Assembly (NCBI GenBank): GCA_036845805.1
Contig: DAIUDD010000002.1
Location: 55,868-119,867, forward strand
Direction of reading: 5' to 3'
Length of the DNA stretch: 64,000 bases
Source: Patescibacteria group bacterium
GTDB lineage: Bacteria > Patescibacteriota > Patescibacteriia > UBA2196
In this document: piece by piece, positions 200-44,719 of the stretch
Layout of the letters: each line of letters begins with the position of its first letter
Position numbering within the stretch: position 1 is the stretch's first letter
Notes under the pieces: generated by a model
What the model saw: only the letters and a program-made list of their open reading frames with translations
Database searches by the model: none
Told to the model about the DNA's origin: nothing
Program-made: the position numbers and the translations under genes

Positions 200-700
200 T
201 TAACGCTTACTCCATTGTGGGGCACGGCGAGCTCTTTTTAAACCAAACTTCTTACGTTCTTTGGCTCTAGGATCGCGAGTTAAATAACCATGAGATCGTA
301 AAGATGGGCGATATTCTTCGTTGAATTCAATCAAAGCGCGGGCAATACCTAAACCTACCGCCGCTGCCTGTCCTGATTTGCCACCACCATTAACTTTAAC
401 ACTAAAATCAAAGGAGGTTCTTTTGCCCACAATATCTAAAGGTCCAGTAACCTTGTTTTTAAGTTCAAAATAAGGGAAATATTCGTCTAGTTTTTTATTA
501 TTAATTAAAATTTCGCCCTGACCGTTTGGTATAAGCCGAACCCGGGCGACAGCTTCTTTGCGGCGACCCAAAGCACGAGTAAATTCATCTTTAATCTTGG
601 TCGCGGATACGACCTGTTTTTTTATTACAGCCCTTTTTTCAGTTAAATCTCTTTTAACTTTTTGATGTTGAATTGTCTTTTTTGATTCTTTTTTAAGCAT
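200..700 (-). CDS. rpsI: 30S ribosomal protein S9 with an N-terminal extension of about 35 aa
   Basis: C-terminal GGGKSGQAAAVGLGIARAL...RDPRAKERKKFGLKRARRAPQWSKR is the canonical S9 signature; lies adjacent to rplM. Confidence 0.9.
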   Translation of the reverse strand: MLKKESKKTIQHQKVKRDLTEKRAVIKKQVVSATKIKDEFTRALGRRKEAVARVRLIPNGQGEILINNKKLDEYFPYFELKNKVTGPLDIVGKRTSFDFSVKVNGGGKSGQAAAVGLGIARALIEFNEEYRPSLRSHGYLTRDPRAKERKKFGLKRARRAPQWSKR

Positions 701-709
701 ATATGAAAA

Positions 710-1057
710 TTAAACAAATTTTAACCTTTTCATCATGGCAGTTCTTAGTTTGTTTTTAGGTAGCATATAATAAACAGCACGACTAAAAACCTTGGTTGGA
801 TTTTTTTGCCAAACATCTTTCAATTTGGTAGTGCGCAAATGCCCCACATAACCAGTATGTTTGTGATAAACTTTTTGTTCCATTTTGCGCCCGGTGAATT
901 TAAGCGCTTGGACATTTTTAATAATAACAATATCACCCTCATCAGAAGCGGGATTGAAAGTGGCTTTATTTTTACCACGCAATAACAAAGCCACGGCGGT
1001 CGCGGCGCGACCGACCGATTGTCCGGTTAAGTCAATAGTGTGAGTGTTTCGAGTCAT
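710..1057 (-). CDS. rplM: 50S ribosomal protein L13
   Basis: Sequence MTRNTHTID...GRAATAVALLLRGKNK...VYHKHTGYVGHL is typical of L13; conserved rplM-rpsI pair. Confidence 0.9.
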   Translation of the reverse strand: MTRNTHTIDLTGQSVGRAATAVALLLRGKNKATFNPASDEGDIVIIKNVQALKFTGRKMEQKVYHKHTGYVGHLRTTKLKDVWQKNPTKVFSRAVYYMLPKNKLRTAMMKRLKFV

Positions 1058-1063
1058 AAATTA

Positions 1064-1414
1064 TTAAACAAATTCAATTAAAGACAATTGGGCGTTATCG
1101 CCGCGACGGTTTTTAATTTTTATAATACGCAAATAACCGCCTTGACGGCTTTGATAGCGCGGAACAATAACTTCAAACATTTTCTTCATGGCTTTTTCCG
1201 TGGTCAGTTTGTTTCTAACTAAACGGCGATTAGCCAAGGTATCTTTTCTGGCGCGCGTAATCAATCTTTCTAAAAGCGGGCGAATTTCTTTGGCCTTGGC
1301 CTCGGTAGTAGTTACTTTTTCATATAATATTAAAGAAGTGAGCAAATTTTTTAATAAAGCTCTGCGTGGACCAGATTTTCTATCTAATTTTCTTTTGGTT
1401 TTCTGATGTTTCAT
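1064..1414 (-). CDS. rplQ: 50S ribosomal protein L17
   Basis: MKHQKTKRKLDRKSGPRRALLKNL...QGGYLRIIKIKNRRGDNAQLSLIEFV; lies downstream of rpoA as in the alpha operon. Confidence 0.9.
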   Translation of the reverse strand: MKHQKTKRKLDRKSGPRRALLKNLLTSLILYEKVTTTEAKAKEIRPLLERLITRARKDTLANRRLVRNKLTTEKAMKKMFEVIVPRYQSRQGGYLRIIKIKNRRGDNAQLSLIEFV

Positions 1415-1423
1415 AATTATTTT

Positions 1424-2245
1424 TTAAACTTCAGTGGTGTCGTTTTTTTTCTTGCGACCACGTTTCTTGGGTTTAGGTTCTTCACTTTCTTCTCTTGACA
1501 CTATTGATTGATTACTAGTGTCAAGATTAAGTTCAGCCTCTTCTTTTAATTCTTTTCTGTAATCTAAGAAAAAAGAAAATTGATCAATTAAAATTTGCGC
1601 TGATTTTTTTAAAGCCTCTTCGGGAGTAACAGTCCCATCAGTCTCAATATATAAAAGTAAACGATCCCAATTAGTCATTTCGCCCACCCGCACATTTTCT
1701 GTATCGACCGCCACCCGCTTAACTGGCGAGAAAAAAGCATCGATAGCAATCATGCCAATTTCTTTATCGCGAGTTTTCATCATCTCGGTTGGTAGATAAC
1801 CACGGCCTTTTTCTAACCACGCTTCTAAATTAAATTCTGCCTGATCTTCAGTAATGGTGGCAATAACCAACTCAGGATTAGTAATTTTAACACCAGCAGT
1901 TTTTTTGAAATCACCAGCCAAAACTTCACCAGCGCCAGTTTTGTTTAATTCCATTTTAATTGGCTCTTCAAAATCACCATCAACTTCAAAACGCACCTGT
2001 TTTAAATTAAGAGAAATATCCACCGCATCTTCTTTAACCCCCTTAACTGCCGAGAACTCATGATCTACACCTTGGAGACGAATAAAAGTAATGGCGGTGC
2101 CTTCTAAAGAAGAAAGCAAAACACGACGTAAAGCATTACCCAAAGTTAAGCCATAACCCGGGTAAAGCGGCTCAATAACAAATTTGCCCTGATTGGCGCC
2201 AGTGGTGTTAAAGTCTTTTTTTTGAGCGATGGGGATAGATAACAT
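1424..2245 (-). CDS. rpoA: DNA-directed RNA polymerase alpha subunit, N-terminal domain only; no recognisable alpha-CTD
   Basis: PLYPGYGLTLGNALRRVLLSSLEGTAITFIRLQGVDHEFSAVKGVKEDAVDISLNLK matches the alpha NTD; start chosen at internal Met (MLSIPIAQ, 2245) by alignment with E. coli alpha; protein ends in a Lys/Arg-rich tail about 40 aa after the NTD. Confidence 0.85.
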   Translation of the reverse strand: MLSIPIAQKKDFNTTGANQGKFVIEPLYPGYGLTLGNALRRVLLSSLEGTAITFIRLQGVDHEFSAVKGVKEDAVDISLNLKQVRFEVDGDFEEPIKMELNKTGAGEVLAGDFKKTAGVKITNPELVIATITEDQAEFNLEAWLEKGRGYLPTEMMKTRDKEIGMIAIDAFFSPVKRVAVDTENVRVGEMTNWDRLLLYIETDGTVTPEEALKKSAQILIDQFSFFLDYRKELKEEAELNLDTSNQSIVSREESEEPKPKKRGRKKKNDTTEV

Positions 2246-2323
2246 ATTGATTGCTAGACAGTGTTGGTTTGTCAAATTAAGAAATAAATAAGACAAACCA
2301 ACAATGAAAATAATTTATATTGA

Positions 2324-2959
2324 TTATTTAGAATAAAACTCAACAATTAAACGCGGGTCAACGCCGATTTGCAATTCATCACCTTCGGGTAAAGCTAGCA
2401 CAACACCTTGACCTTTTTCTTTGTCCCAAGAAAGCCAAGAAGGCAACAGACCTTCGGTGGTTGATAGACTTTTTAAATTTTCGGCCAAAGAACCTTTGAT
2501 TTTGGTTTTTTCTTTACGAATAGTAATAATATCACCAACCCTTACTTGATATGATGGAATGTTGTTTTTTTTATGATTAATTAAAAATAAGCTATGGCCA
2601 ATAAATTGGCGCGCTTGTGCTCGAGTTAAAGCTAAACCCAAACGATAAACAACATTGTCCAGACGACGTTCCACAATTTCAATTAATTTAAAGCCACTAT
2701 TGCCCTTACTTTTTACCGCTTCATTAAAATATTTACGCAATTGGCGCTCCATTAAACCATACATGACTTTTAATTTTTGTTTTTCTTGCAAATGTAAACC
2801 ATAATCAGTAATGCGCTGATAACCTTTAGGACCGTGTACGCCTGGAGGATAATTTCTTTTTACCAGCGCGCACTTGCCATCGCCCCGCTCGCCCTTACCA
2901 CATAATTTTATACCCAGGCGGCGGCATTGTTTACATTTAGGATTTAAATTTCTAGCCAT
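2324..2959 (-). CDS. rpsD: 30S ribosomal protein S4
   Basis: MARNLNPKCKQCRRLGIKLCGKGE...LDNVVYRLGLALTRAQARQFIGH matches S4. Confidence 0.9.
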   Translation of the reverse strand: MARNLNPKCKQCRRLGIKLCGKGERGDGKCALVKRNYPPGVHGPKGYQRITDYGLHLQEKQKLKVMYGLMERQLRKYFNEAVKSKGNSGFKLIEIVERRLDNVVYRLGLALTRAQARQFIGHSLFLINHKKNNIPSYQVRVGDIITIRKEKTKIKGSLAENLKSLSTTEGLLPSWLSWDKEKGQGVVLALPEGDELQIGVDPRLIVEFYSK

Positions 2960-2974
2960 AGAAAATATTTTAAA

Positions 2975-3505
2975 TTACACGCGGCGTCTTTTTTTAGGAC
3001 GTACACCGCCGTGGGGCACGGGTGTCATATCTTTAATTGCAGTAATTTTTATACCATTAGTATCAAAAGCGCGCACCGCTGCCTCGCGACCCATACCAAC
3101 ACCCTTAACAAACACATCGAGCTCTTTAATGCCTAATTGCTTAATCTTATCAGCTAATGATTTAACTATAACGCCAGCAGCATAAGGAGTGGCTTTTTTA
3201 GGGCCCTTAAAACCAGCGCGGCCAGCCGTGGCCCATAATAAAACAGAACCATTTAGATCGCTAATAGTAATAATAGTATTGTTGTAAGTAGCTTTAATAT
3301 GAGCCTGCCCACGACCGCCACGTAAAAACGGGGCAGCTTTCTTTTTTTTCTTACCCTTAACAACCACTGTCGATGAACTGGCAGAATTTTTTAATTTTGT
3401 TTTTTCCTCGTTCAGAGATTCTGTCTTTTCTTCAACAGCAACAACTTCAGCTGGGGCTACTGAATTTTCAGTCATCGAATTAATTGTTTTTTGTTCATCG
3501 TCCAT
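2975..3505 (-). CDS. rpsK: 30S ribosomal protein S11 with an N-terminal extension of about 45 aa
   Basis: C-terminal two thirds (GQAHIKATYNNTIITISDLNGSVLLWATAGRAGFKGPKKATPYAAG...PHGGVRPKKRRRV) is canonical S11. Confidence 0.9.
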   Translation of the reverse strand: MDDEQKTINSMTENSVAPAEVVAVEEKTESLNEEKTKLKNSASSSTVVVKGKKKKKAAPFLRGGRGQAHIKATYNNTIITISDLNGSVLLWATAGRAGFKGPKKATPYAAGVIVKSLADKIKQLGIKELDVFVKGVGMGREAAVRAFDTNGIKITAIKDMTPVPHGGVRPKKRRRV

Positions 3506-3544
3506 GTAAAAAAGTATTTTATTTATTTAAATTAATCATCAATT

Positions 3545-3934
3545 TTATGTCTTTTGAGCGGCGGGTTTGCGACCAGAACCCACTGTCTTTCGAACATTGC
3601 CACGAACAGTTCTGGTGTTACGGCGAGTACGCTGGCCTCTGGCCGGCAATCCTTTGGCATGACGAGAACCGCGGTAAGAACCAATTTCTTTTAAACGTTT
3701 AATATTACTAGCTATTTCTCGACGCAAATCACCTTCCACGCGATGTTCTTTTTCTATTTTTTGTCTTAATTTGTTAGCTTGATCATCTGTCAAGTTTTTT
3801 ACTCTGATATTAGGGTCAATATTTAATTCCTTTAAAATTTTCTGCGATTGACTTAAGCCAACACCAAAAAGATAGGTTAAACCTATCTCGATCCTTTTTT
3901 CGTTTGGCAAATTAACACCGGCAATCCGAACCAT
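3545..3934 (-). CDS. rpsM: 30S ribosomal protein S13
   Basis: [26 protein letters not shown]...[24 protein letters not shown] matches S13. Confidence 0.9.
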
Positions 3935-3995
3935 AAAAAAATATTTTTAAGAATCAAAAGTTTTGACTTTTGAATTTTTAATTTTGAGTTTTAAA

Positions 3996-4109
3996 TTAGC
4001 CCTGTCTTTGTTTGTGTTTAGGGTTTTTACAAATCACAACTACGCGCTTATTACGGCGCACAACTTGGCAATCTTTGCATATTTTTTTAACAGAAGCTCT
4101 AACTTTCAT
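3996..4109 (-). CDS. rpmJ: 50S ribosomal protein L36 (37 aa; missing from the ORF track because it is under 60 aa)
   Basis: Manual translation of the minus strand gives [37 protein letters not shown]; sits in the conserved infA-rpmJ-rpsM position. Confidence 0.85.
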
Positions 4110-4126
4110 AAATAGATAATGAATTT

Positions 4127-4429
4127 TTATATTCTATACATAATCCGTCCTTTTGTCAAATCATAGGGCGTTAACTCCACCTTAACTTTATCACCGGGAA
4201 TTAGCATGATCTTATGCAGCCGCATTTTACCAGAAAGCCGGGCCAAGATTTCATGTCCGTTTTCCAAGCGCACCCGAAAGGTAATACTGGGCAAAGTTTC
4301 CACAATTTCTCCTTGCATTTCAATAAAACCCTTTTTAGTAATTTTATGCGGAGAAAAATCATTAGCCACGTTTCCGCTGGCTGGTAATGATGGTTCAATT
4401 TTTGATTGATCAGTGTTTAAATCAGACAT
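4127..4429 (-). CDS. infA: Translation initiation factor IF-1; the annotated ORF carries about 38 extra N-terminal residues, so the true start may be internal or a non-ATG codon
   Basis: [65 protein letters not shown] aligns end-to-end with bacterial IF-1. Confidence 0.8.
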
Positions 4430-4601
4430 TAAAATTGGGGGTATAAAAAATACCCAGAATTTAAAATTCTTGACGATAATTAGTTAAAGATTGGTAAATA
4501 TGATATTTAGCAATATATAATAGTATAATATAAAAGCTTCATAGCTGTCAAGAAAATAGAAGTAAGCCAATTTTATACAAAAGAACTTGATTTTATTGCC
4601 C

Positions 4602-5813
4602 TTAATTGTTTTTTATTACCACCTGGACCCTATTAGCCCAATTGGGAATGCGCTTACCCATACCAAGAGAAAAGACAAAACGGGCATCTTTAATATAGGG
4701 CAGAGATAATAAATAACGACGAGCTTCGCTTTCGTTCTTGCCTAAAATATTTTTTTTAATCTCATCTAAGTCAACTTTCTTAACCACTGGAAAAGTGGCT
4801 TTAATTTTTAAATCAGCCAGACCTAAATTAAAATCGGCTTGAGCATTAATGATTTCAAGACTAATGTTTTCGGCCTCACCCAAAGATTGATCTGCTTTTA
4901 AGTTGTTAGAAAATTTATCCCGAAGAACCTGGCGCATTTCTTTTTGAGAAAAAATCAAGGCTGATGCTTTTAGGGTTAAGGACAAATCAAATTCCTTCAT
5001 TTTGCTATCGGCCGCAACTTCTGGCGAAATACTGGTAACTTCGTAAGAAATTAATTGTTCGACTACTGATAAATTATCACCGGCTTCTTGGCGCAACTTG
5101 TCTTTCAATTTTATTTGCAAATTTTTAGTTAATTTATCCTTGGCTTGATCAAGATCTTCTTGCGAAACAACGGTAACAATATTAGAAGTTCCGCCTTGCA
5201 AAGGGCCGGATAATTGGCCGTAAATTTTATCTTGTTTTTCCCAGGGCAGCGAGTTGATATTAAAACGACCAGTAGTGCCATTAGCTTTATCACCAGCTTC
5301 TTTTGCTTCCACTACCACCTGAATTTGACCAGGCACGACCCTGCCTTCGGCATCAACTTTGGCACCGGGAATGGTTATTGTTTCTTTAACTCGCACAATA
5401 ACACCAGTGATGGTCATTAAATCAACATCAGGAGTTACTGGTTGAGAGGGTCCGGTAGTGTTATAAAATATAGCTTGCCCACTAGCTTTTTGACCCAAAT
5501 CTTTTTGCCCAGTAGCATTAAATTTTTCCTTAATCGATTCTTCGGCGGTTTTTAATTCGGCAACAAAAATATTATTGGCAGGATCACTCTTGGTTTGGTC
5601 GGTAGTTAATTTAAGATCTAATTCTTGAGTCATGTTTTCGGCGGTCAAAACCAAATTAACAGTGACCTGAGGAAAAAAATAGTTAAAAAGGAAAAATAAA
5701 ATTAATAGACCAGCAAAAAAAAGCCACCACTTTTTATGACGTGATACTCCTTTAAGGGGTTTATGAGAAGAAGGAAAATTTTTTTGATAGGCACCAAATT
5801 TGGTAGTAATCAT
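4602..5813 (-). CDS. Hypothetical N-terminally membrane-anchored protein, paralogous to 53491..54636
   Basis: Single TM helix (WWLFFAGLLILFFLFNYFF) followed by a large extracytoplasmic domain; shares blocks with the 53491 ORF (TVNLVLTAEN/TITLTLGEEN, GQAIFYNTTG/GQVKIINNST, TIPGAKVDAEG/SIPAGKETMA). Confidence 0.6.
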   Translation of the reverse strand: MITTKFGAYQKNFPSSHKPLKGVSRHKKWWLFFAGLLILFFLFNYFFPQVTVNLVLTAENMTQELDLKLTTDQTKSDPANNIFVAELKTAEESIKEKFNATGQKDLGQKASGQAIFYNTTGPSQPVTPDVDLMTITGVIVRVKETITIPGAKVDAEGRVVPGQIQVVVEAKEAGDKANGTTGRFNINSLPWEKQDKIYGQLSGPLQGGTSNIVTVVSQEDLDQAKDKLTKNLQIKLKDKLRQEAGDNLSVVEQLISYEVTSISPEVAADSKMKEFDLSLTLKASALIFSQKEMRQVLRDKFSNNLKADQSLGEAENISLEIINAQADFNLGLADLKIKATFPVVKKVDLDEIKKNILGKNESEARRYLLSLPYIKDARFVFSLGMGKRIPNWANRVQVVIKNN

Positions 5814-5822
5814 AAAAACAAA

Positions 5823-7700
5823 CTAAGATAGAACTGCTTTAATTCTTCTCACGCCGGCTGAACTGGCTTCTTCTTTAATAATTTTGAAAGCCCCGAGTTC
5901 GCCGGTATTTTTGACATGTGGCCCACCGCAAATTTCACAACTAAAATTTTCAGCTAAATTATTCGGGTCGCACACAGAATAAACTTTTACCTGATCGCCA
6001 TATTTATCAGCAAAGACGCCAATCGCACCTTTGGCTTTAGCTTCCGTGACAGTCATTTCTTCGCAAGTTACATCCATCTTCTTATTTATCATTTCATTAA
6101 CCAAATCTTCCGCTTGCTTAATCTGCTCCGCTGTCATTTTTTCACTATGGGAAAAATCAAACCGCATTCTCTCTTCGGTAATATTGGAACCTTTTTGATA
6201 AATATGAGGACCCAATACTTTGCGCAAAGCAGCATTCAATAAATGGGTGGCAGTATGATATTGGGTCACTTTTTCGGAATGGTCAGCCAGGCCGCCTTTA
6301 AATTTTCCGGCCGCGGCTGTGCGTGAAAGTTCCTGATGTTTTTGCATTTCAATATTAAAACCACTTTCATCAACTGCCAATCCTTTTTCTTTGGCCAACT
6401 CTTTAGTCAATTCCAAAGGAAAACCAAAACTTTGGAATAAATTAAATGCTACAATTCCCTTAATTTCTTTATCTCTGGTTGCTTCAGCAACCATCCCGCC
6501 ATGGCGGGATGAAAGCGGAGCTTCCAATTTCTTAGTTTCTTTTTCAAATTCCTTTATTCCCTCTTGCAACGTCTGAGTAAATTTTTCTTCCTCCACCTGT
6601 AAATTATCAAGCACAAATTTACGGCTACGATCTAATTCCGGATAAACATCATTCATTAAATTAATTACCACTGTCGCAATTTGGTGAGTAAAATTTTCTT
6701 TAATGCCAAGCAGGCGGCCATGGCGAATGGCACGACGAATTAATTTCCGCACCACATAGCCTTGGTCCACATTAGCGGGCGCAATACCATGATCATCGCC
6801 CATAATAAAAGTAACCGCCCGCAAATGATCAGCAATAATGCGCATCGATCTGATAGTCCCCTCCTTTTCAAGGAGGGGCCCATGCCCCGCAGGGGCAGAG
6901 GGGGTGGTTATGTATTTTTGCCCAGATAACTCTTCAATCTTTTGAATAATTGGTAAAAATAAATCTGTTTGATAATCATCATCCAAACCACTTATCACGG
7001 CTAAATTTCTTTCCAAGCCAGTGCCATTATCAATGTTTTTTTGATTGGCTGGTTTATATTTATTCTCCCCTATTTTTTCGTATTGCATTAAAACATCATT
7101 GCCAATTTCTACCCAGCGCTTGTCCGAGGGATCAAAAACTTTTGGCGCTGGTCCTTTTTTATCAACCCAATAAAACATCTCGGTGCACGGGCCGCAGGGG
7201 CCAGAATTGCCAGTTGGTTCCCACCAATTGTCTTTTTTGGGCAAAGATTTAATTCTATCTTGATCAATTCCGAGTTTTTTCCAAATTTCAATTGATTCAT
7301 CATCGCGTGGCGCATTTTCATCACCAGCAAAAACAGAGACGGCCAAAAATTTTTTATCCAAGCCAAGCTCCTTTGTAACAAACGCAAAAGTCATTTTCAA
7401 GGCTTCCTCTTTCCAATAATCTCCTATTGACCAATGACCGAGCATTTCAAAAAATGTGTGGTGAAAGCCGTCGCCGACTTCATCAATGTCACCAGTGCGA
7501 ACGCATTTTTGCGAATTAACTAGTCGCGCGCCAGCTGGATGTTTTTCGCCAAGCAAAAATGGCACGAGCGGGCTCATGCCGGCAGTGGTAAATAAAATTG
7601 AGGGATCATTTTCTGGAATTAAAGAAGCGCTCGGGATTTCTGCATGCCCATTTTTTTTAAAAAATTCAATGTATTTTTGCCGCAATTCTTTAGAAGTCAT
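5823..7700 (-). CDS. alaS: Alanyl-tRNA synthetase, short form (625 aa): catalytic, tRNA-recognition and editing domains present; no C-Ala domain
   Basis: N-terminal class II motifs, internal HTATHLLNAALRKVLGPHIYQKGSNITEERMRFDFSH editing-domain signature, and a metal-binding C..C.GGPHV site near the C-terminus. Confidence 0.9.
   Translation of the reverse strand: MTSKELRQKYIEFFKKNGHAEIPSASLIPENDPSILFTTAGMSPLVPFLLGEKHPAGARLVNSQKCVRTGDIDEVGDGFHHTFFEMLGHWSIGDYWKEEALKMTFAFVTKELGLDKKFLAVSVFAGDENAPRDDESIEIWKKLGIDQDRIKSLPKKDNWWEPTGNSGPCGPCTEMFYWVDKKGPAPKVFDPSDKRWVEIGNDVLMQYEKIGENKYKPANQKNIDNGTGLERNLAVISGLDDDYQTDLFLPIIQKIEELSGQKYITTPSAPAGHGPLLEKEGTIRSMRIIADHLRAVTFIMGDDHGIAPANVDQGYVVRKLIRRAIRHGRLLGIKENFTHQIATVVINLMNDVYPELDRSRKFVLDNLQVEEEKFTQTLQEGIKEFEKETKKLEAPLSSRHGGMVAEATRDKEIKGIVAFNLFQSFGFPLELTKELAKEKGLAVDESGFNIEMQKHQELSRTAAAGKFKGGLADHSEKVTQYHTATHLLNAALRKVLGPHIYQKGSNITEERMRFDFSHSEKMTAEQIKQAEDLVNEMINKKMDVTCEEMTVTEAKAKGAIGVFADKYGDQVKVYSVCDPNNLAENFSCEICGGPHVKNTGELGAFKIIKEEASSAGVRRIKAVLS
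6856..6912. repeat. Family-2 palindromic element (cccctccttttcaaggagggg ... cagagggggtggttat) inserted in-frame inside alaS
   Basis: Same hairpin plus ggggtggtta module as the intergenic copies at 7712-7801, 26577-26650 and 26781-26945; encodes the extra segment TPSAPAGHGPLLEKEGT just before the conserved RIIADHLRA block. Confidence 0.7.
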
Positions 7701-7711
7701 GTGGTGTTGTT

Positions 7712-7801
7712 AGTCCCCGCCTTATGAAGGCGGGGCCTCATGTTCCACCACCCTTGTGGTGAGTGGAACAGAGGGGGCGGTTAATAAGATCGCCGATAGG
7801 C
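7712..7801. repeat. Family-2 palindromic element, intergenic copy upstream of alaS
   Basis: gtccccgccttatgaaggcggggc shows compensatory changes relative to the cccctcc/ggagggg copies, so the stem is conserved; shares the 3-prime module ggttaataagatcgccgataggc with the 26577 copy. Confidence 0.7.
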
Positions 7802-7847
7802 AAAATAAATGTTATTTATATAATTTTTATTTTAACAAAAATTGACT

Positions 7848-7900
7848 AAAAAAGCAATTTTAAATATCAAAAAACCGCTTGTCTAACAAACGGTTTTTTG
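7848..7900. terminator. Bidirectional terminator-like hairpin (aaaaaccgcttgtctaacaaacggtttttt)
   Basis: Stem aaccg/cggtt flanked by an A-run and a T-run. Confidence 0.45.
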
Positions 7901-7924
7901 TCTTATCTTTCATTCGCCAACCAT

Positions 7925-8195
7925 TTTTATCTCAAGAGAGTTTGGTAGATAAAATTAATAATGATTGACGAGTGAAAGAAAGGAACTGGCTAAATTGTGA
8001 TATTCTCCGTTCCTTATTGTTTTTAAAACCCCAAAAAAGGGGTGCGAGCTCGGTATCCGGATCTGTGAATATTGGATACCTTCCTGAACTGTGTCTGGTA
8101 CTCGCGCCAGACAAGGGAAGTTCTCACGTCTATAACTTCCGAACGTAGTCATAGCTTACGGCGTATGACCGCCTTTTTAATAAGTCTCTGGTGTA
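7925..8195. ncRNA. Putative structured non-coding RNA at the 3-prime end of a high-GC island; strand and family unknown
   Basis: At least five perfect 6-7 bp stems within 270 nt (aaggaac/gttcctt, acccc/ggggt, ggtatcc/ggatacc, ggaagtt/aacttcc, gtcata/tatgac); one longer stem needs a U-G pair on the plus strand; no long ORF; no match to tmRNA, RNase P or SRP signatures that I can recognise. Confidence 0.25.
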
Positions 8196-8196
8196 T

Positions 8197-9003
8197 TTAA
8201 CCTCTTCGGCAATCCGAGGAGATCACCAGAAAAGATGTTTCTTCTGTGCCGTAGGCTGGAAAAAACACTGCTTTAGTTTCCCCTCTCCTTACTTGAGAAA
8301 CTGCAGTATTAATATCATATGGGGATTTCCACCCTCTGCGTTTCCGAACAAATCTATTAGGCCGAATAAACTTACCCGGACATTCGTGCCCAGATAATTC
8401 ATCCGTGCCTTCTTCGGAAACAACAACCACAACGTCGCAAGAACAGATTTTTTTCCCGTCGCTACTGATTGCAACGGCTCGGTCAAAATCGCTCTCGGCG
8501 TTTTTTGCGATTGACTTAACTGCTAAGGTGAGTCTCTCTAACAAAAAGCTCCGAGCCTCAATGTCATCCCAGCGAAATAGCAATGCCAAGACAACATCGG
8601 CATTGGTAATTGACCGAATTCTTCTGCCAATTACCTCGCATTGTGCGACGCCGGCTTTTCCTCGGTATTCCACCAAGTAGGCATCAATCGCACCAAAAAC
8701 ATTTGGCAACCCGTAGATATTGGCTAAATCTCCACGGATTAGCCAATCAGCCAACCCACTAGTGAGAGCCGCAAAAGATTTCTTTAGGAATCTGGTGACA
8801 ACCCCGTCCCACTGAAAGTGAGTGGTGTTAAACGGAAATACAATTTCCGCCGCATTCAACCATGCCTGTTTCCAGGACATCACGGCCGAATACCCAGCTC
8901 CAGTGGCTGGTCGTTTTTGAAGGTAATTTAAGGGATCTTTAATCCCAAAAACTTCCTCTAGCCGGTTGGCCACAAAGGCCAATTTTTTTTCTTCTAGATT
9001 CAT
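8197..9003 (-). CDS. Hypothetical protein (268 aa) in a high-GC island; no family recognised
   Basis: Long ORF with an AGGAGG RBS; local GC about 45-47% against about 33% genome-wide; contains a Cys/His cluster (CSCD...HECPG); structured leader (hairpins 9028-9042 and 9065-9101). Confidence 0.5.
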   Translation of the reverse strand: MNLEEKKLAFVANRLEEVFGIKDPLNYLQKRPATGAGYSAVMSWKQAWLNAAEIVFPFNTTHFQWDGVVTRFLKKSFAALTSGLADWLIRGDLANIYGLPNVFGAIDAYLVEYRGKAGVAQCEVIGRRIRSITNADVVLALLFRWDDIEARSFLLERLTLAVKSIAKNAESDFDRAVAISSDGKKICSCDVVVVVSEEGTDELSGHECPGKFIRPNRFVRKRRGWKSPYDINTAVSQVRRGETKAVFFPAYGTEETSFLVISSDCRRG

Positions 9004-9218
9004 AACTTCCTCCTAAGAAGTTTGTTCGGGAGCACTACTCCCGTTTGCCTGCTTGACCATCAAGCAGTATTTTGAATACTAAAATAATAATCAAAATACT
9101 GCCTGTGGTAATTTTTTAAAGGACTATTTTCTTCTCTTCTAAAACTTTCCAAAAAATGAAAAGTTTTAGTAAAGAGCCAAAGCAGCGGTGCATTGCTGCT
9201 TTGGCAAAAGCGTGTGGA

Positions 9219-9614
9219 TTACTCCGCATTCTGGAACACGCGTTCCAGAATGGCGAAATAATTTGACTTTTGGTCTCCACTCCCGATATATTGGGAGCAG
9301 ACAGCCACCCATTCGCCACCACCTCGGTTGGTGCACACGAGGTGGGCGTTAGAGGTGGCTGAGCCAAAAGTCAAGCTCAGCAGGTCTTGGGGCCGATAGC
9401 CCTTCCACCCGCCGAACTGGCCATCCAGAAATAAAACATTTTCTGAACGGTCTTCATAGGGGTCTACCACGACATCACGGTAGCCCCACGAGTTGACCGC
9501 GATCCACACGCGATCGATGGCAAAACATTTCTCCTCCTCACCTTGGGTGAGAAGGCGGCTCAACCTGCAGAGTTGCGACTCTGTAAGGAGCCTTGTTTCT
9601 TTTAAAAAACTCAT
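9219..9614 (-). CDS. Hypothetical protein (131 aa), same high-GC island
   Basis: ORF with a GGAG RBS 7 nt upstream of the ATG; high GC; co-directional with the 8197-9003 ORF. Confidence 0.5.
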   Translation of the reverse strand: MSFLKETRLLTESQLCRLSRLLTQGEEEKCFAIDRVWIAVNSWGYRDVVVDPYEDRSENVLFLDGQFGGWKGYRPQDLLSLTFGSATSNAHLVCTNRGGGEWVAVCSQYIGSGDQKSNYFAILERVFQNAE

Positions 9615-10146
9615 AATTTCTCCAATTTTTTAACCGACGCCCAATTGCGCCAGTAAACCAGTATGCTCTGGATTGGAGAATCTTGCCACCGCTTCTATTT
9701 CTTTTTTTAAGAAACAAAAGTGGTGGCAAAAAAAATTTTAAAGAACTTTTTTTCTATTGACTGTGGTGAAGACGATTTTCTTAGTAAGAGGCAGATCAAT
9801 AAACAATGTTTGTTAATATCCGCGTTACTAATGTCTCTCTTCTCCACCACGGTCCTTAGAAACAAAAAAGTCTTCTACTGTTCAAGAGAGAAGACCATAA
9901 TTAATAAATCTAATAAAAATTGACTTGTTGTAGGGCTCGCAGTGCCTACCAGACTGTCTCTCTTGTTTTAATCCTAAATTGTAAAGATTAAAATTTATCT
10001 CACATTTTTTATTTTGTATATCTTATTATAGCACACTTGTATAATTTTGTCAATAGATAGATTGTGTATAAATAAAAAAATTACCTAAAATTAGCTAAAT
10101 TAAAGACGTGATAAATCACGTCTCTACAACCATAATTATTACTTTT

Positions 10147-10180
10147 CCTTAATTTCTTAGTTTCTTAATTTCTCTATTTC
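10147..10180. repeat. Family-6 short repeat, T-rich orientation (ccttaatttcttagtttcttaatttctctatttc)
   Basis: Reverse complement shares 23 identical nt (agaaattaagaaactaagaaatt) with the copy at 12746-12777. Confidence 0.6.
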
Positions 10181-10184
10181 TTTT

Positions 10185-12740
10185 TCATCTCAGATCTCTT
10201 TCATGTGGTGGCGCTTCCACTCCCTCGCCCAACTTAGACCGCTCAAAAATTTCTTTTTCCACTTCGGCTTTAGGCCGACCATATTTAAGGCGGGAAAATT
10301 CACGCGCCGCATGAGCAATTTCGGGATTACCTTTAACCGGCGAGAAAGCTGCCATATTAAATGGCCGGGCGGCTTCGTTATTAATCATTAAACGCACATA
10401 AGCATTAAACTTTTCAATATTCATTAAATCATATTCATTAAAAACCGGCGCAAATTGTTTGGACATTACTTCGGTGTCTTCCACCCCAATCCGATAACAA
10501 ACCATGGTGCCGACATTGCCAAAAACAGCGTCTCTCACTTTAGTGTCATTATTTTTAACAAGCTGGCTGATAAATTGATGCGCCATAATCATATTCAGGC
10601 GATATTTTCTAGCTTCAGCTAAAATGGTGGCAATGGAATCAGTGACATAATTTTGAAACTCATCAATATATAAATAAAAATCATTTCTTTGGTTTTCTGG
10701 TACATCCGCGCGCGATAAGGCGGCCATCTGTAATTTGGAAACAAAAGTTAAGCCTAATAAATCACTATTAACTTCGCCAACTTTGCCTTTGGATAAATTA
10801 ACCAAAAGAATTTTCTTCTGATCCATGGCAGAGCGAATATCAAAACCAGAATGCGGCTGGCCAATAATATTTCGCATCATTTCATTTTCCACAAAACGAC
10901 CAGTTTTGGAAATCACATAGGAAAGCATGTCAGCGGCACTCGAACCGCGCTGGGATTGAGCATATTCTTTTTCCCAAAATGATTTAACTAATAAATCATG
11001 ACATTTAGAGAGTTTGTAATTACGAAATTCTTCATCGGTAAAAATCCGCGCGATTTCCACTAAAGTGCCAGGGTCTTTTTGATCTGACATTAAAAGCAAC
11101 ATGGCATTACGCATATAATGCTCAAACATCGGGCCAATCATGGACGGATCAGTGACTAATTTATAGAAAATGGCAATCATTTCCTGAACAGCAAAATCTT
11201 GCTCTTGGGGAGTTTGGGCATCCAACATATTAAGGCCAACCGGACGATCAATGTCTGAAGGGTCAAAATAAATCACATCTGCTAATCTTTCTTTGGGAAT
11301 GGCAGGCAAAATATCATCAATGCCGTTGCCGTGCGGATCAATATAGCAAACACCTTCGCCGTTTTGAATATCTTGTACCGCCATGTTAACCATTAAAGTG
11401 GACTTGCCTGTACCGGTCATCCCAATAATATACATGTGTCGGCGGCGATCGTCGCGTTGTAATTTAACAATAGTTTCTTTGCCGCGATAAATATTTTTGC
11501 CTAAGATAATTCCCTCCTCTGGCATATTGACTGGCGCTGGCGCTTTTCTGGCCCCCAACCAATAAATATTAGGGGTGGGGCAAGAGGGTAAGGGAAAATG
11601 AAACAAAGAAGCCAACTCTTCGGTGTTTAAAATAAAGGCAGACTCGGCTCTAAATTGCCGATGAATTGAATCGGAAATGGTGCGCTCTGATTTTTTTACT
11701 AAAGCCTTAAAACCATTGCCATACTCATAGATATTATATTGGCCAAAAGAATTTAAAATATTTTTTAGATTAATTTCGGAACCGCCCTCAAAAGCGCTGG
11801 CCACCACTAAACGCAAATTAACTTGGAGCGCGCCTTTGGAAGATTTTTCTTCCATTGATTTAATTAATTCCTGATCAAATGGCGTTAATTCAGCGTTTTT
11901 ATTAAGCTGATTTTTAGGTTTTTCACCAGCAGTCATCATAGAATGCAAAGAACCAATACTGCCAAAAGTGCCCTCGGCTAATTTATCATACCAAGACTTC
12001 TGGTTTAAACTTTTTAGAACTGTTTCTATTTTTCTGCCAGACATTATTTCTTTAACTGCTTTTCGGCCACGCTTATGCCATTCTTTATGGATGGGTCTAA
12101 TAATTAATTGGATCAACGCTCCTTCTTTTGAACTAAACTTAGACAAACTGTTGGTCGTGGCGTTTAAAGGATCAACTTCCATTTTGCGGTAAGTTTTAAT
12201 TGGCAATACGTCGGGCCGGGTTAGAAGTAAATTAGCAGCCGAAGCATTACCGGTCGGCGTGAATAAATTATAATCCTCGCTAATTTCGGTTTGGGCATGA
12301 GGATATTGAGCTTGAATTTGTTGTTCAACAAATTGGGCTAGATAGGCGGGTACTACCACATAGAAATAAACCAGTTCGCGCTGAGCTACAATTTCTAAAG
12401 AAATCTGATCGTGGCGACCATAAAGCCAAGTATGCCAACCCTTAAGTGGTTTAATGGCAGCAAAGGCCGCCCATAAATTTTCCGCCCAAGAAATTTGTTC
12501 CTGAATACGATTAGGGCCGGTGTTTTGATTTTGAAGCTCGTCTTTACCGGCCGCTGCTTCTTTGGGCACAGTAATTAATAAAATTATTGGGCGAAACTCG
12601 GCGGGTAATTTATAGTGACTTCTCATCCAAGCGCGCCAGAGGTATAAAACAACAATGATTAAAATAATTACGCCAATCAAAAATAACCCAACCACCAAAG
12701 CGGGGTTATTAAAAATTAATGAGGAAAAAGAAGAAGTCAT
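10185..12740 (-). CDS. Membrane-anchored P-loop ATPase of the VirD4/TraD/TrwB (type IV coupling protein)-like superfamily
   Basis: N-terminal TM helix; Walker A IIGMTGTGKST; Walker B-like LYIDEFQNY; large cytoplasmic domain; start set at internal Met (MTSSFSS, 12740) because the upstream part of the ORF runs through a repeat. Confidence 0.65.
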   Translation of the reverse strand: MTSSFSSLIFNNPALVVGLFLIGVIILIIVVLYLWRAWMRSHYKLPAEFRPIILLITVPKEAAAGKDELQNQNTGPNRIQEQISWAENLWAAFAAIKPLKGWHTWLYGRHDQISLEIVAQRELVYFYVVVPAYLAQFVEQQIQAQYPHAQTEISEDYNLFTPTGNASAANLLLTRPDVLPIKTYRKMEVDPLNATTNSLSKFSSKEGALIQLIIRPIHKEWHKRGRKAVKEIMSGRKIETVLKSLNQKSWYDKLAEGTFGSIGSLHSMMTAGEKPKNQLNKNAELTPFDQELIKSMEEKSSKGALQVNLRLVVASAFEGGSEINLKNILNSFGQYNIYEYGNGFKALVKKSERTISDSIHRQFRAESAFILNTEELASLFHFPLPSCPTPNIYWLGARKAPAPVNMPEEGIILGKNIYRGKETIVKLQRDDRRRHMYIIGMTGTGKSTLMVNMAVQDIQNGEGVCYIDPHGNGIDDILPAIPKERLADVIYFDPSDIDRPVGLNMLDAQTPQEQDFAVQEMIAIFYKLVTDPSMIGPMFEHYMRNAMLLLMSDQKDPGTLVEIARIFTDEEFRNYKLSKCHDLLVKSFWEKEYAQSQRGSSAADMLSYVISKTGRFVENEMMRNIIGQPHSGFDIRSAMDQKKILLVNLSKGKVGEVNSDLLGLTFVSKLQMAALSRADVPENQRNDFYLYIDEFQNYVTDSIATILAEARKYRLNMIMAHQFISQLVKNNDTKVRDAVFGNVGTMVCYRIGVEDTEVMSKQFAPVFNEYDLMNIEKFNAYVRLMINNEAARPFNMAAFSPVKGNPEIAHAAREFSRLKYGRPKAEVEKEIFERSKLGEGVEAPPHERDLR

Positions 12741-12745
12741 AAACG

Positions 12746-12777
12746 AGAAACTAGAAATTAAGAAACTAAGAAATTGA
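12746..12777. repeat. Family-6 short repeat, A-rich orientation (gagaaactagaaattaagaaactaagaaattgag)
   Basis: Inverted relative to the 10147 copy; its 17-nt core gaaactaagaaattgag is identical to 26536-26552. Confidence 0.6.
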
Positions 12778-12877
12778 GGGTTTATTGTTTTCGCCCTTAA
12801 TTTCTCCCGCCCGCCTTGCAAGCCAGAGTGCTGTGGGCAGGTTATTTCTGTGTTTCTTTATTTCGTTTTTTTATTAT

Positions 12878-13348
12878 TTATTTCTCTATTTCAAGTATGC
12901 GGTCCGCTTTAATCTTGGCTTCCTGTTCCACAAAAAATCGATTTAGACCAGGAATAATTTTTAGCCATTTTTTGATCAAATTAAAGACTCGGCGAAACGT
13001 AATTTTAGCTGTTTCAATTAATTCAATAATTTTTTTAGCGGTTTGTTCGCCTTCGGCTTTAAAAATTTTTTGCTTTTCCGGCGAGAGTGAAAAATACAAA
13101 TCACCCAAGTCTTCTTCTAAGACTGCTTCAATGTTTTGATGCAGAGGTGTTTTACTAGAGTCAATTCCTGGTGCACCTACTCCCAGATCACTAACGAGCG
13201 GTAAATTTTTTTCTCCAATTTTTTCGACTTGTTCTAAAGGTGGTGCTTCCATGGCCGAGGAAACTGAGATTTCCGATGATTCAAAATCAGACACCCTTTC
13301 CGGTGTTTTAATTTTTTCTATTTTGCCTGGTTGAATAATAGTATCCAC
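12878..13348 (-). CDS. Hypothetical acidic protein (156 aa), upstream of and co-directional with the VirD4-like ATPase
   Basis: ORF only; no family recognised. Confidence 0.45.
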   Translation of the reverse strand: MDTIIQPGKIEKIKTPERVSDFESSEISVSSAMEAPPLEQVEKIGEKNLPLVSDLGVGAPGIDSSKTPLHQNIEAVLEEDLGDLYFSLSPEKQKIFKAEGEQTAKKIIELIETAKITFRRVFNLIKKWLKIIPGLNRFFVEQEAKIKADRILEIEK

Positions 13349-22015: not shown

Positions 22016-22130
22016 TAGGGACAGGTTTGAAACCTGTCCCTACAAAATAATTTTTATAGTGGAGACGGGTTTGGTATTATCCCGCGATTAGTGGGACCAC
22101 CAAACCCAAGGTTGCGAACTGTCCCTACGA
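22016..22130. repeat. Family-3 palindromic element (gtagggacaggtttgaaacctgtccctac ... gaactgtccctac) upstream of dnaK
   Basis: Perfect 12-bp stem; related copies at 27590-27613 and in-frame at 61433-61460. Confidence 0.6.
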
Positions 22131-22241
22131 AAAATAACATTAAAATTGTCATCCTGAACTTGTTTCAGGATCTCTCTATATAAAATTTTTTTTAAAATAA
22201 TGAGATGCCGAAATAAATTCGGCATGACAAAACATATAGTA

Positions 22242-26567: not shown

Positions 26568-26576
26568 GGTTCCAAG

Positions 26577-26650
26577 CTCCCCTCCTTTTCAAGGAGGGGC
26601 GATAGAGGTGATAGCCTCATCGGGGTGGTTAATAAATCGCCGATAGGCGG
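26577..26650. repeat. Family-2 palindromic element
   Basis: cccctccttttcaaggagggg + ggggtggttaataaatcgccgataggcgg. Confidence 0.7.
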
Positions 26651-26742
26651 ATAGTTTCCCTTTATTTCTCTTTTTCTTTATTTCTTAATTACTTTTTCAT
26701 TTATCCCCAACTTTTTTAATCTATTTCCATTATACAAAACAA

Positions 26743-26769
26743 TTAGCACTCGTGTCAAGCGAGTGCTAA
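26743..26769. promoter_or_regulatory. CIRCE operator (HrcA binding site) ttagcactc-N9-gagtgctaa
   Basis: Perfect match to the CIRCE consensus TTAGCACTC-N9-GAGTGCTAA, upstream of hrcA-grpE. Confidence 0.85.
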
Positions 26770-26780
26770 ATGGATTAGCA

Positions 26781-26945
26781 GTCCCCTCCTTTTGAAGGAG
26801 GGGCCTTAAGCCCGAAGGGCTAAGGTGGTGGTTATGGTATTTAGAATTAATTTTATCTTAATGTTATAACCACCCCCGTCTCTGCTTCGCAGAGTCGCCC
26901 GTTAATGTTTGCCGTTGTGGCAAACATTAACTTTAAAAGGAGGGG
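26781..26945. repeat. Composite family-2 palindromic elements (two hairpin modules plus the perfect hairpin gttaatgtttgcc-gttgt-ggcaaacattaac)
   Basis: cccctccttttgaaggagggg ... ggtggtggttat and, inverted, ataaccacccccgtctctg. Confidence 0.65.
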
Positions 26946-27490: not shown

Positions 27491-27652
27491 AATTGTCATC
27501 CTGAACTTGATTTAGGATCTCCCAGAATAAGTTTGTCTCAGAGTAAGGGGGTGCTAAAATAAATTCAGTATAAAAATATAAATAAAAATGGACAGGTCGC
27601 GACCTGTCCCTACATCACACTTCATTATTCTCTGTTTATTACTTTTTTGCCA

Positions 27653-43750: not shown

Positions 43751-44719
43751 TTATTTTAAAAAAAGATTAACCAATTTTTCCGCTGAATCATAATTTTTTA
43801 CCCACTTAATTCTTTTATCTCTTTTAAACCAAGTCAACTGGCGTTTGGCAAATTGATGAATGGCAATTTTTAATAATTTAATCATTTCTTCTTTGGGATA
43901 CTGACCGCGCAAATAGCGAGAAATATAGCGATATTCCAAACCAAAATCATCCAACCGCTGCCAACTGACTCCTTTTTGGTGTAACAGTTCTATTTCTTTA
44001 ATCATCCCCTCTCTCAGACGCTCATCAACCCGCTGGTCTATTCTTTGATTAATAATTTCACGGGGAAATTTAATGCCAATAATAAGCGGATTAAAAAGCG
44101 GGTTTTTTTTCTGCCGCAAAGCAGAAAACTTGTGTCCAGATAAACAAACCTCAAGTGCGCGGTCTAGACGTCGTGGGTTTTTAGTATCTACAAATTCTAA
44201 AGCGGCTGGATCTAATTTTTTTAATAATTTTATTTTTTCCAAAGTTTCCATTTTTTCGATTTTTTTTCTCAATTTTATGTTGGGCTTAACAGCGGGAATA
44301 TTATAATTATCAATCAAAGCGGAAAGATAAAGGCCGGTACCGCCAACCACGATGGGCAATTTACCACGCGCGATGACATTATTAATGGCTTTTAGTGCTA
44401 ATTTTTTATATTTAGCGACATTAAATTTTTGATTCGGATTAACCACATCAATTAGATGATAAGGGACAAAAGAATTGTCATTCCGGACTTGATCCGGAAT
44501 CCACTTATTTTTATTTCTGGATCCCAGCTTTCGCTGGGATGACAAACTATATTCGCTCAAATCTTTGCCAGTGCCAAGATCCATGCCGCGATAAACTTGT
44601 CTCGAGTCAACAGAAATAATTTCGCCATTAAATTTGGCAGCTAATTTGACAGCTAATTTTGTTTTACCAGTAGCTGTGGGACCGAGAATAACAATGATTT
44701 TTGGTTTTAATATTGACAT
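43751..44719 (-). CDS. miaA: tRNA dimethylallyltransferase with an in-frame palindromic-element insertion
   Basis: P-loop GPTATGKT, ISVDSRQVYRGMDLGTGK; the element at 44475-44546 adds about 27 aa (LSEYSLSSQRKLGSRNKNKWIPDQVRNDNSF) between the GTGK and HLID motifs. Confidence 0.85.
   Translation of the reverse strand: MSILKPKIIVILGPTATGKTKLAVKLAAKFNGEIISVDSRQVYRGMDLGTGKDLSEYSLSSQRKLGSRNKNKWIPDQVRNDNSFVPYHLIDVVNPNQKFNVAKYKKLALKAINNVIARGKLPIVVGGTGLYLSALIDNYNIPAVKPNIKLRKKIEKMETLEKIKLLKKLDPAALEFVDTKNPRRLDRALEVCLSGHKFSALRQKKNPLFNPLIIGIKFPREIINQRIDQRVDERLREGMIKEIELLHQKGVSWQRLDDFGLEYRYISRYLRGQYPKEEMIKLLKIAIHQFAKRQLTWFKRDKRIKWVKNYDSAEKLVNLFLK

Follow-up and report, generated by a model that had tools for sequence, protein, structure and literature searches.

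A GC-rich two-gene segment among core genes

Analysis of a 64,000-nucleotide (nt) stretch of a Patescibacteria group bacterium genome (contig DAIUDD010000002.1; this whole stretch is called the window below) reveals a segment of about 1.6 kilobases (kb), at roughly 8020–9640, that is rich in guanine and cytosine (GC) and carries two genes, encoding proteins of 131 and 268 amino acids (aa), amid AT-rich core genes (those of a VirD4-like ATPase, alaS, rpsM/rpsK/rpoA and cysS). The RNA feature of the family to which the 268-aa protein belongs is the leader 5′ of its gene rather than the tail that follows it, in which an earlier note on this DNA had looked for an RNA partner of the protein.

According to the list of open reading frames (ORFs) of the window, the minus strand carries every gene from 200 to 13348. 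This set comprises rpoA, rpsK, rpsM, an unknown 403-aa gene and alaS (7700..5823), then the 131-aa and 268-aa genes; beyond the pair come a VirD4/TraG-like ATPase gene with DUF8128 (12740..10185), then CorA, a Na/Ca exchanger and cysS. The genes around the pair are housekeeping genes of host-like GC content. The two co-directional ORFs read in the earlier note were found at the following positions, each preceded by a GGAG-type ribosome-binding site:

8197..9003, minus strand: 268-aa gene, member of a rare uncharacterised protein family (homologues, alignments and a model)
9219..9614, minus strand: 131-aa ORFan gene, the strongest compositional outlier of the window

The overall GC content of the window is 36.3%. 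In bins of 100 nt, values of 0.41–0.51 are reached over 8000–8999, 0.35–0.37 in the spacer at 9000–9199, 0.46–0.61 over 9200–9599, and at most 0.39 from 9600 onwards. The GC rise pointed out earlier is visible in these bins, but it stands on a background (36.3% over the window, 37.2% over its genes) higher than the 33% of the earlier note. The 52 ORFs of at least 120 aa have a mean GC content of 37.2% (standard deviation, SD, 4.0) and a mean GC content at third codon positions (GC3) of 32.1% (SD 6.3). The corresponding values are 45.8% and 43.1% for the 268-aa gene, and 52.5% and 60.6% for the 131-aa gene; no other of the 52 genes reaches the values of this pair. The fit of codon usage, calculated for 51 genes as the leave-one-out likelihood of synonymous codon choice, is likewise the worst of all for this pair (−2.3 SD for the 268-aa gene and −4.5 SD for the 131-aa gene).

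The 268-aa protein family and its 5′ leader

A word-indexed search of 5.8 billion proteins recovered the 268-aa protein alone; an exhaustive HMMER scan of 1.84 billion cluster representatives yielded ten distant homologues, the best of which, P0003, matches over the full length with an expectation value (E) of 1e-18 and 34% identity. Profile searches and scans of genome and metagenome contigs enlarged the family, in which the only named records, two in number, are from Candidatus Uhrbacteria. The scan of genome contigs gave a single locus, from Uhrbacteria (the genome of the window lies outside that collection), and that of viral contigs gave none. In total, 17 distinct family loci were recovered from metagenomes and metagenome-assembled genomes, several of the samples bearing a groundwater label or Hainich well codes. 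The contigs concerned have a GC content of 42–64%, and at several of these other loci the family gene is a few percent richer in GC than its own flanks.

Conserved features of the family are an N-terminal helix, ELREAFV..RF.E, a core motif, AE.DFDRAVAVS.DG.KI...D.VVV, and the invariant residues F10, A169, A176, A178, G183, V192 and K211; the charged positions E170, D172, D174, D182 and R151 are conserved too. Members of about 310 aa end in a C-terminal FCPxPLPxGG; some homologues extend 15–70 aa further at the C-terminus, and this ending is missing from the protein of the window. The cluster CSCD...HECPG, taken earlier for a possible metal site, is present in the sequence, but its Cys and His residues are replaced in most homologues, so that the metal site itself is not upheld. 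The AlphaFold model of the protein has a predicted local distance difference test score (pLDDT) of 80 and a predicted template modelling score (pTM) of 0.74, and no fold match was found for it in PDB or BFVD; searches of PDB sequences with the family profiles gave no match either. No Pfam match recurs among 23 family members. Both proteins of the segment had been described as matching no recognised family, which agrees with searches of Pfam, NCBIfam, PADLOC and PHROGs, where neither gave anything above noise, and with DNA and protein searches that found no plasmid or phage match for them. The 268-aa gene is a real member of a rare, stand-alone accessory protein family with no known domain or fold.

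The neighbours of the family genes differ by lineage and include RNase J with a solute-binding protein, an ABC transporter, peptidase M23, GMP synthase, toxin–antitoxin pairs and aminoacyl-tRNA synthetases; the neighbour analysis found none common to the family loci beyond near-identical strains. At three loci from three lineages (L008, L010 and L018) the family gene stands directly downstream of the genes for RNase J and a solute-binding protein, an arrangement that is the only synteny recurring beyond strain level.

The leader of the 268-aa gene contains the following elements, given in the direction of transcription:

9084..9111, minus strand: promoter-like TTACCA-16-TATTAT for the 268-aa gene (9/12 match)
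9049..9067, minus strand: leader hairpin H1, CUGCUUGA-UGG-UCAAGCAG, the first hairpin in many homologous leaders (by eye)
9028..9042, minus strand: leader hairpin H2, GGGAG-UAGUG-CUCCC, with UAG in its loop (the gggagcactactccc of the earlier note)
9004..9022, minus strand: leader hairpin H3, AACUUC-UUAGGAG-GAAGUU, enclosing the Shine-Dalgarno sequence AGGAGG right before the AUG (9003..9001)

This leader had been called highly structured, and both hairpins named in support are confirmed, the spacer 9004–9218 folding with a z score of about −8.4 to −8.8. One of the two, cagtattttga...tcaaaatactg, has its arms at 9061–9081 and 9085–9105 and overlaps the promoter-like site 9111..9084 as well as H1; no counterpart of it was seen in the leaders of the homologues. 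The other, gggagcactactccc, is recognised as H2 of a conserved element because H2 and H3 are conserved in homologues. Homologous loci with enough upstream sequence have, by eye, a TTGACx-17-TAnnnT promoter about 90 nt upstream of the start codon, and H1 is probably the 5′-proximal stem-loop of the 268-aa mRNA.

For comparison, the 105 nt upstream of each family start codon were lined up. Single-sequence folding with RNAfold gives H2 and H3 in nearly all of the 17 leaders, and in these folds H3 encloses a Shine-Dalgarno sequence AGGAGG or GGAG. Across the family the loop of H2 carries UAG or UAA (CCUAGAAAAC, CCUAAGAAAC, AUAGAAC, GUAGAAC, UAGUG), and that of H3 reads GUAGGAG, GUAAGA, CGUAGAAA or UUAGGAG, the hairpin enclosing the Shine-Dalgarno sequence or pairing with it. 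Within subgroups the loops of the two hairpins are alike: UAAGA goes with UAAGA, UAGAA with UAGAA, and UAG with UAGGAG.

The closest comparisons concern two homologues. Thirteen nt of H2, GGAGUAGUGCUCC, are identical upstream of homologue P0004 (locus L027), although the proteins are only about 33–36% identical; the chance of a common 13-mer between two regions of 100 nt is estimated at about 1e-4, and the H2 sequence is unique in the window. Relative to a second homologue, L026, H2 shows compensatory changes, and H3 there reads GUAUCC-UUAGGAG-GGAUAU, with the loop unchanged and three pairs fully compensated. In the three-sequence alignment of the window with its two closest homologues, 88% of the cells pair and 6 of 11 pairs are compensated, versus 0–1 in controls with slid partners. 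By structure, the H3 of the window ranks sixth among 51 ribosome-binding regions.

In the group of about 310 aa, 13 leaders were used to build a covariance model, R2, by which they were then realigned. In this alignment 83% of the cells are paired, versus 64% after shuffling (none of 500 shuffles reaches the observed value) and 35–47% with slid partners; 9 of 12 pairs change on both sides and the covariation score is 0.574 versus 0.227 for shuffled data, pair counts that are inflated by the fitting of the alignment (A8) to the model structure. The helix equivalent to H3 covaries in three of its four pairs in these 13 other leaders, and the hairpin equivalent to H2 covaries too. Moreover, R2 finds leaders on which it was not trained at the correct place (L020 with E 0.03, L027 with E 0.26 and L026 with E 1). 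In Rfam 15, searches with 15 homologous loci gave only tRNA and rRNA, and the leader of L009 had no match at E ≤ 1. The stems covary and vary freely, and the loop bases and the ribosome-binding site are fixed. We hold it likely, with some assurance, that the 5′ leader is a conserved structured element.

R2 also has weak second matches about 50–100 nt upstream of the true leaders, at 860–918 of L012 (E 0.012) and at 3921–3983 of L019 (E 0.56), which may represent a duplicated hairpin module.

The 3′ flank and other hairpins of the region

Between the stop codon of the 268-aa gene and alaS the following features can be distinguished:

8025..8196, minus strand: GC-rich (about 45%) structured 3′ untranslated region (UTR) of the 268-aa gene, with four or five short hairpins
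8029–8042, minus strand: weak terminator-like hairpin CCCC-U6-GGGG-U4 at the end of 8025..8196
7901..8017, minus strand: AT-rich host-like segment, with a 7-bp hairpin at 7980–8015 and an imperfect hairpin with arms 7901–7929 and 7956–7984
7868..7900, no strand assigned: palindrome forming a formally bidirectional terminator, A6-CCGCTTGT...ACAAACGG-T6, with 15-nt arms that are 93% complementary
7980–7986/8009–8015, 8052–8058/8074–8080 and 8092–8098/8107–8113: perfect stems of the tail
8116–8122/8134–8140 and 8148–8153/8164–8169: further perfect stems of the tail

The five perfect stems of 6–7 bp that had been noticed can be read directly in the sequence. The terminator at 7868..7900 closes the transcription unit upstream of alaS; a terminator at the end of the island next to a repeat had been described, and both the palindrome 7868–7900 and the repeat 7711–7801 were found. 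That the tail holds no ORF is loosely true, but ORFs of 58–65 aa exist in it, which have neither a ribosome-binding site nor homology.

Compared with shuffled sequences, the region 7905–8196 has a folding z of −5.8 for the minus and −2.8 for the plus strand. A stem had earlier been taken to hint at the plus strand; the asymmetry favours the minus strand instead, which places any structure at the RNA level on the sense strand of the 268-aa gene. As a control, every intergenic region of at least 90 nt was cut into tiles of about 200 nt, 44 in number, and compared with 20 dinucleotide shuffles per strand, which gives a rough z. The tile 7949–8196 has a z of −1.9 (plus strand) and −4.0 (minus strand). 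Outside the locus, 11 of the 38 tiles (29%) reach z ≤ −4 on at least one strand, with values down to −9; a high density of hairpins between genes is thus typical of this genome, in which the tail does not stand out. As z values of −4 to −9 are common between the genes of this genome, hairpin density alone is a poor flag.

The Rfam and covariance searches that the earlier note had proposed for the tail gave it no standing as an RNA family. Rfam has no match at the gathering threshold anywhere in the window, and at E ≤ 10 only noise (microRNA families, for example) in 7650–10200. A Phe_leader assignment of 7901..8017 was judged to be due to chance, being below threshold (33 bits versus a cut-off of 55) and based on structure only; a T-box or attenuator leader of alaS at 7701–8017 was likewise discarded, as Rfam gave no T-box match. 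When R1, a covariance model built from the tail (155 positions, 44 pairs), was searched against the window and 16 family loci, it recovered the tail alone. BLAST detected no relative of the tail at any family locus, and tblastx against the family loci and the window found nothing. Most homologues have a plain terminator hairpin about 20–90 nt after the stop codon, and none of the tail hairpins has a second copy in the window. The most fitting reading of the tail is a 3′ UTR together with hairpins and terminators that are native to the intergenic DNA.

At two other loci, L009 (5449–5560, Candidatus Uhrbacteria) and L012 (2106–2230), the family gene is followed by a hairpin with a conserved loop, TTTTCA(A)CGATCGTGGATTT, and different stems (CCCACCG/CGGTGGG versus CCTCCCCGA/..GGGGAGG), next to a common terminator. 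This hairpin, which is not present in the window, may be a palindrome to which a protein binds, or else a 3′ element conserved locally.

The 131-aa gene has its own structured surroundings:

10025..10053, minus strand: perfect sigma-70 promoter TTGACA-17-TATAAT with extended TG (12/12 match)
9615..10018, minus strand: AT-rich, strongly structured region from the promoter to the 131-aa gene (fold z −10.4 minus, −5.7 plus)
about 9745–9875, minus strand: rod-like hairpin of about 130 nt within 9615..10018
9683–9729, minus strand: 21-bp hairpin within 9615..10018
about 9862–9897, minus strand: terminator-like GUCUUCU...AGAAGAC-U6, a possible early terminator
9176..9205, minus strand: GC-rich 11-bp hairpin just past the 131-aa stop codon, terminator-like with a weak U tail

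The word-indexed search of 5.8 billion proteins returned only the query for the 131-aa protein, PDB holds no match to it, no relative of it occurs at any other locus of the 268-aa family, and its single-sequence AlphaFold2 model (pLDDT 37) is unusable. The perfect promoter lies about 410 nt upstream of its start codon. Two perfect TTGACA-N17-TATAAT sites occur in the 64 kb of the window, versus 0.06 expected; the second one is at 26729–26758. The region 9615..10018 is the most structured stretch at the locus and has no significant Rfam match and no second copy in the window. The RNA of 9615–10053 might act as a leader of the attenuator type or form a separate small RNA. 6S RNA and a miniature inverted-repeat transposable element were considered for the rod-like hairpin at 9745–9875 and set aside, as there is no Rfam match and no second copy in the window.

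Several repeats were recorded in the window. A GC-rich double-hairpin family, AGTCCCCNCCTT..AAGGNGGGGC..GGGGG[CT]GGTTA, is found at 7711–7801, 6855–6917, 26576–26638 and 26780–26842. Of these copies, the first is in the 5′ region of alaS and another falls within its reading frame, where it is apparently translated in frame (...PSAPAGHGPLLEKEG...); the remaining two are in the spacer at 26.5–26.9 kb beside the perfect promoter 26729–26758. A perfect 23-nt inverted repeat, AATTTCTTAGTTTCTTAATTTCT (10151–10173 and 12753–12775), flanks the VirD4/TraG-like gene, with its arms 12–13 nt beyond the stop and start codons; it is part of an AT-rich periodic repeat family, 'ATTTCTTA', which is also present at 6455, 19717, 26648, 38973 and 39145. 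Two families of small intergenic hairpin repeats, AATTGTCATCCTGAAC... (22144–22183, 27491–27530, 44473–44512) and GGACAGGTCGCGACCTGTCCCTAC (22105–22128, 27590–27613, 61437–61460), fit a genome rich in short palindromic elements.

Probable origin of the segment and proposed control of the 268-aa gene

Of the earlier description of the segment as a foreign and recently acquired island, the foreign composition stands, in GC content and by the codon usage calculated here, and for its insertion ends only identical contigs were seen. We think it rather probable that the segment was acquired horizontally, most likely from a GC-richer relative. The family occurs mostly in GC-richer genomes and the copy of the window is of intermediate GC content, which fits acquisition followed by partial drift; the donor would then have been a GC-richer genome, and the intermediate value would reflect a partial approach to host composition. 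Like horizontally acquired ORFan islets, the locus has atypical GC content, GC3 and codon usage confined to two genes among core genes, one of them without a detectable homologue; unlike such islets, it has no integrase, tRNA target, direct repeat or mobility gene. ARAGORN detected neither a tRNA nor a tmRNA, and no integrase or mobility gene is present. The direct repeat of 15 nt TAAYAAAAATTGACT (7833 and 9911) was rejected as a target duplication: it matches in 14 of 15 nt, which is within the estimated chance, and resembles repeated promoter −35 regions.

Against acquisition it could be held that these are native lineage-specific genes whose odd composition stems from amino-acid content or from an old acquisition, the island being an artefact of comparison with AT-rich neighbours. 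The lack of an integrase, a tRNA or a convincing flanking direct repeat would agree with this, as would the named homologues from Candidatus Uhrbacteria, the position of one of them (L009), which is also about 3 kb from alaS, and the several other loci at which the family gene exceeds its flanks by a few percent GC. On the other hand, the largest deviation is at third codon positions (GC3 of 61% and 43% versus 32%, SD 6) and synonymous codon choice is the worst in the window, which points to mutational history and not to protein composition; we therefore consider native genes unlikely, while granting them some weight.

It is less probable still that the GC-rich part of the tail, 8040–8196, is a decayed third gene that moved with the island, a proposal compatible with the best explanation. 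The tail has the GC content of the island and no intact gene, and some homologues are 15–70 aa longer, with the FCPxPLPxGG ending; but read-through past the stop codon gives no PLP-like motif, the tblastx comparison with all family loci and the window finds nothing, and an excess of structure specific to one strand is not expected of decayed coding DNA.

We also find it improbable that the 131-aa and 268-aa genes form a toxin–antitoxin or anti-phage defence cassette on a mobile islet. In favour of this are the small size of the two genes, their common direction and their foreign composition, as well as the sporadic occurrence of the family, whose variable neighbours include toxin–antitoxin genes at some loci (DUF2283/DUF4258 at L009, a nucleotidyltransferase pair at L008 and L018). 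However, PADLOC finds nothing, the 131-aa gene is at no other family locus, the two genes appear to be separately promoted with a terminator-like hairpin between them, and there is no phage or plasmid similarity.

That the 268-aa protein works with the structured RNA of its 3′ flank in the manner of a retron, of TnpB with its omega-RNA or of an RNA antitoxin is very improbable. In its favour, the tail is more stably folded than its shuffled versions, above all in the sense direction (z −5.8), its part 8040–8196 has the composition of the island, and biochemical grounds cannot count against a protein known from its sequence alone. Against it, searches of Pfam, PADLOC, NCBIfam and PHROGs show no domain of a reverse transcriptase, of RuvC/TnpB or of a ToxN-like or other nuclease, neither a fold match nor a tandem repeat nor an Rfam match was obtained, the tail is at none of the 16 homologous genes, which mostly have plain terminators instead, and comparable z values occur in 29% of the other intergenic tiles. 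Thus the pairing of the 268-aa protein with an RNA of about 270 nt, put forward in the earlier note, is not borne out by diagnostic domains, by Rfam or by conservation beside the 16 homologues. The tail is very probably not an RNA partner, and we do not regard the locus as a new system of the RNA-guided or RNA-dependent kind.

The comparison with individual systems leads to the same picture. For a retron, no RVT_1-type reverse transcriptase was found (Pfam, NCBIfam and PADLOC at E ≤ 1, and no fold match), and no msr/msd RNA (Rfam gathering threshold over the window, and nothing credible at E ≤ 10 in 7650–10200). For TnpB/IscB OMEGA systems, no RuvC-containing protein (OrfB_IS605, OrfB_Zn_ribbon), no conserved gene-linked 3′ guide RNA and no transposon ends or repeats were found. 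For a ToxIN-like system, Tandem Repeats Finder gives AT-rich repeats of 8–16 nt at 10077–10182 only and none near the genes, and Pfam and PADLOC show no ToxN/AbiQ-type endoribonuclease. What the locus shares with all three is a protein gene adjoining structured non-coding sequence and nothing else; it has neither their defining proteins nor their RNA organisation, and its RNA is not conserved.

Taken together, we favour, by a modest preference, an acquired cassette with a translational operator, the tail being ordinary punctuation. The leader probably controls translation of the 268-aa gene. The order of its elements would be its own promoter, the H1 stem-loop, H2 with its UAG loop, the Shine-Dalgarno-enclosing H3 and the AUG. 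H3 would limit the access of the ribosome, and the UAG(R)(R) loop motif of H2 and H3 would be read by a trans-acting factor, most economically the encoded 268-aa protein, with autogenous translational repression as the outcome. The likeness of the H2 and H3 loops suggests a single trans-acting reader touching both, for which the encoded protein is the simplest candidate; the same likeness could stem from shared ancestry within subgroups. A pair of simple hairpins conserved only in their loops fits an operator bound by a protein better than an aptamer for a metabolite. Alternatively, since UA(A)G begins the extended Shine-Dalgarno complement UAAGGAGG, the H2 loop might be a standby site for the 30S subunit. 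In the favoured reading of a translational operator, the 3′ tail would serve punctuation or stability of the transcript and not guidance.

Several observations weigh against this reading or parts of it. Besides the inflation of pair counts noted above, R2, searched at E ≤ 10, misses the leader of the window itself, and the homology of this leader to the larger group rests on architecture and three sequences. The H3 of the window reaches only −5.8 kcal/mol. Autoregulation through the leader, a pure inference drawn from sequence, we put forward tentatively. As for the acquisition, an empty-site search via the flanking genes returned only 100%-identical contigs; moreover, the ribosomal proteins S13 and S11 of the host are themselves singleton or two-member clusters at 90% identity, and in so poorly sampled a lineage ORFan status is weak evidence of foreignness.

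Among known systems, the leader can be set beside autogenous operators such as ribosomal-protein leaders, the thrS operator and the phage coat-protein or RegA operators. As in these, short hairpins lie in the 5′ UTR with one overlapping the Shine-Dalgarno sequence, the stems covary, the loops are conserved and the element travels with the gene across distant homologues. Unlike them, the present operator is predicted from sequence, the protein has no known fold and the motif is outside Rfam 15; we know of no described operator in which a UAG(R)(R) loop motif recurs in two consecutive hairpins. RNA thermometers such as ROSE and fourU sequester the Shine-Dalgarno sequence, and H3 resembles them as a small hairpin enclosing this sequence directly before the start codon. 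It differs from ROSE and fourU in having no Rfam match and no U-rich anti-Shine-Dalgarno strand; thermometers, for their part, have no second conserved hairpin with a matching loop, and the family is not one of heat-shock or virulence genes. The third comparison is with repetitive extragenic palindromic (REP)-like intergenic hairpins: the intergenic DNA of the genome is rich in hairpins and a repeat family adjoins the locus at 7711–7801, but each hairpin of the tail and of the leader occurs only once in the window.

Two things are retained: a family of rare, uncharacterised proteins, whose model is confident but has no counterpart in PDB or BFVD, and a candidate 5′-leader motif outside Rfam that accompanies proteins only 20–35% identical. 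More speculatively, and with less expectation than for autoregulation itself, the 268-aa family may be an undescribed RNA-binding or regulatory protein of Uhrbacteria-like small-genome bacteria that controls its own synthesis by means of a new operator made of two hairpins, H2 and H3, with UAG(R)(R) loops; a less probable variant of this reading would have the protein bind the 3′ UTR as well. If true, this would pair a new protein fold with a new cis-regulatory RNA motif. The leader motif and its family add to the small catalogue of regulatory RNAs from bacteria with reduced genomes.

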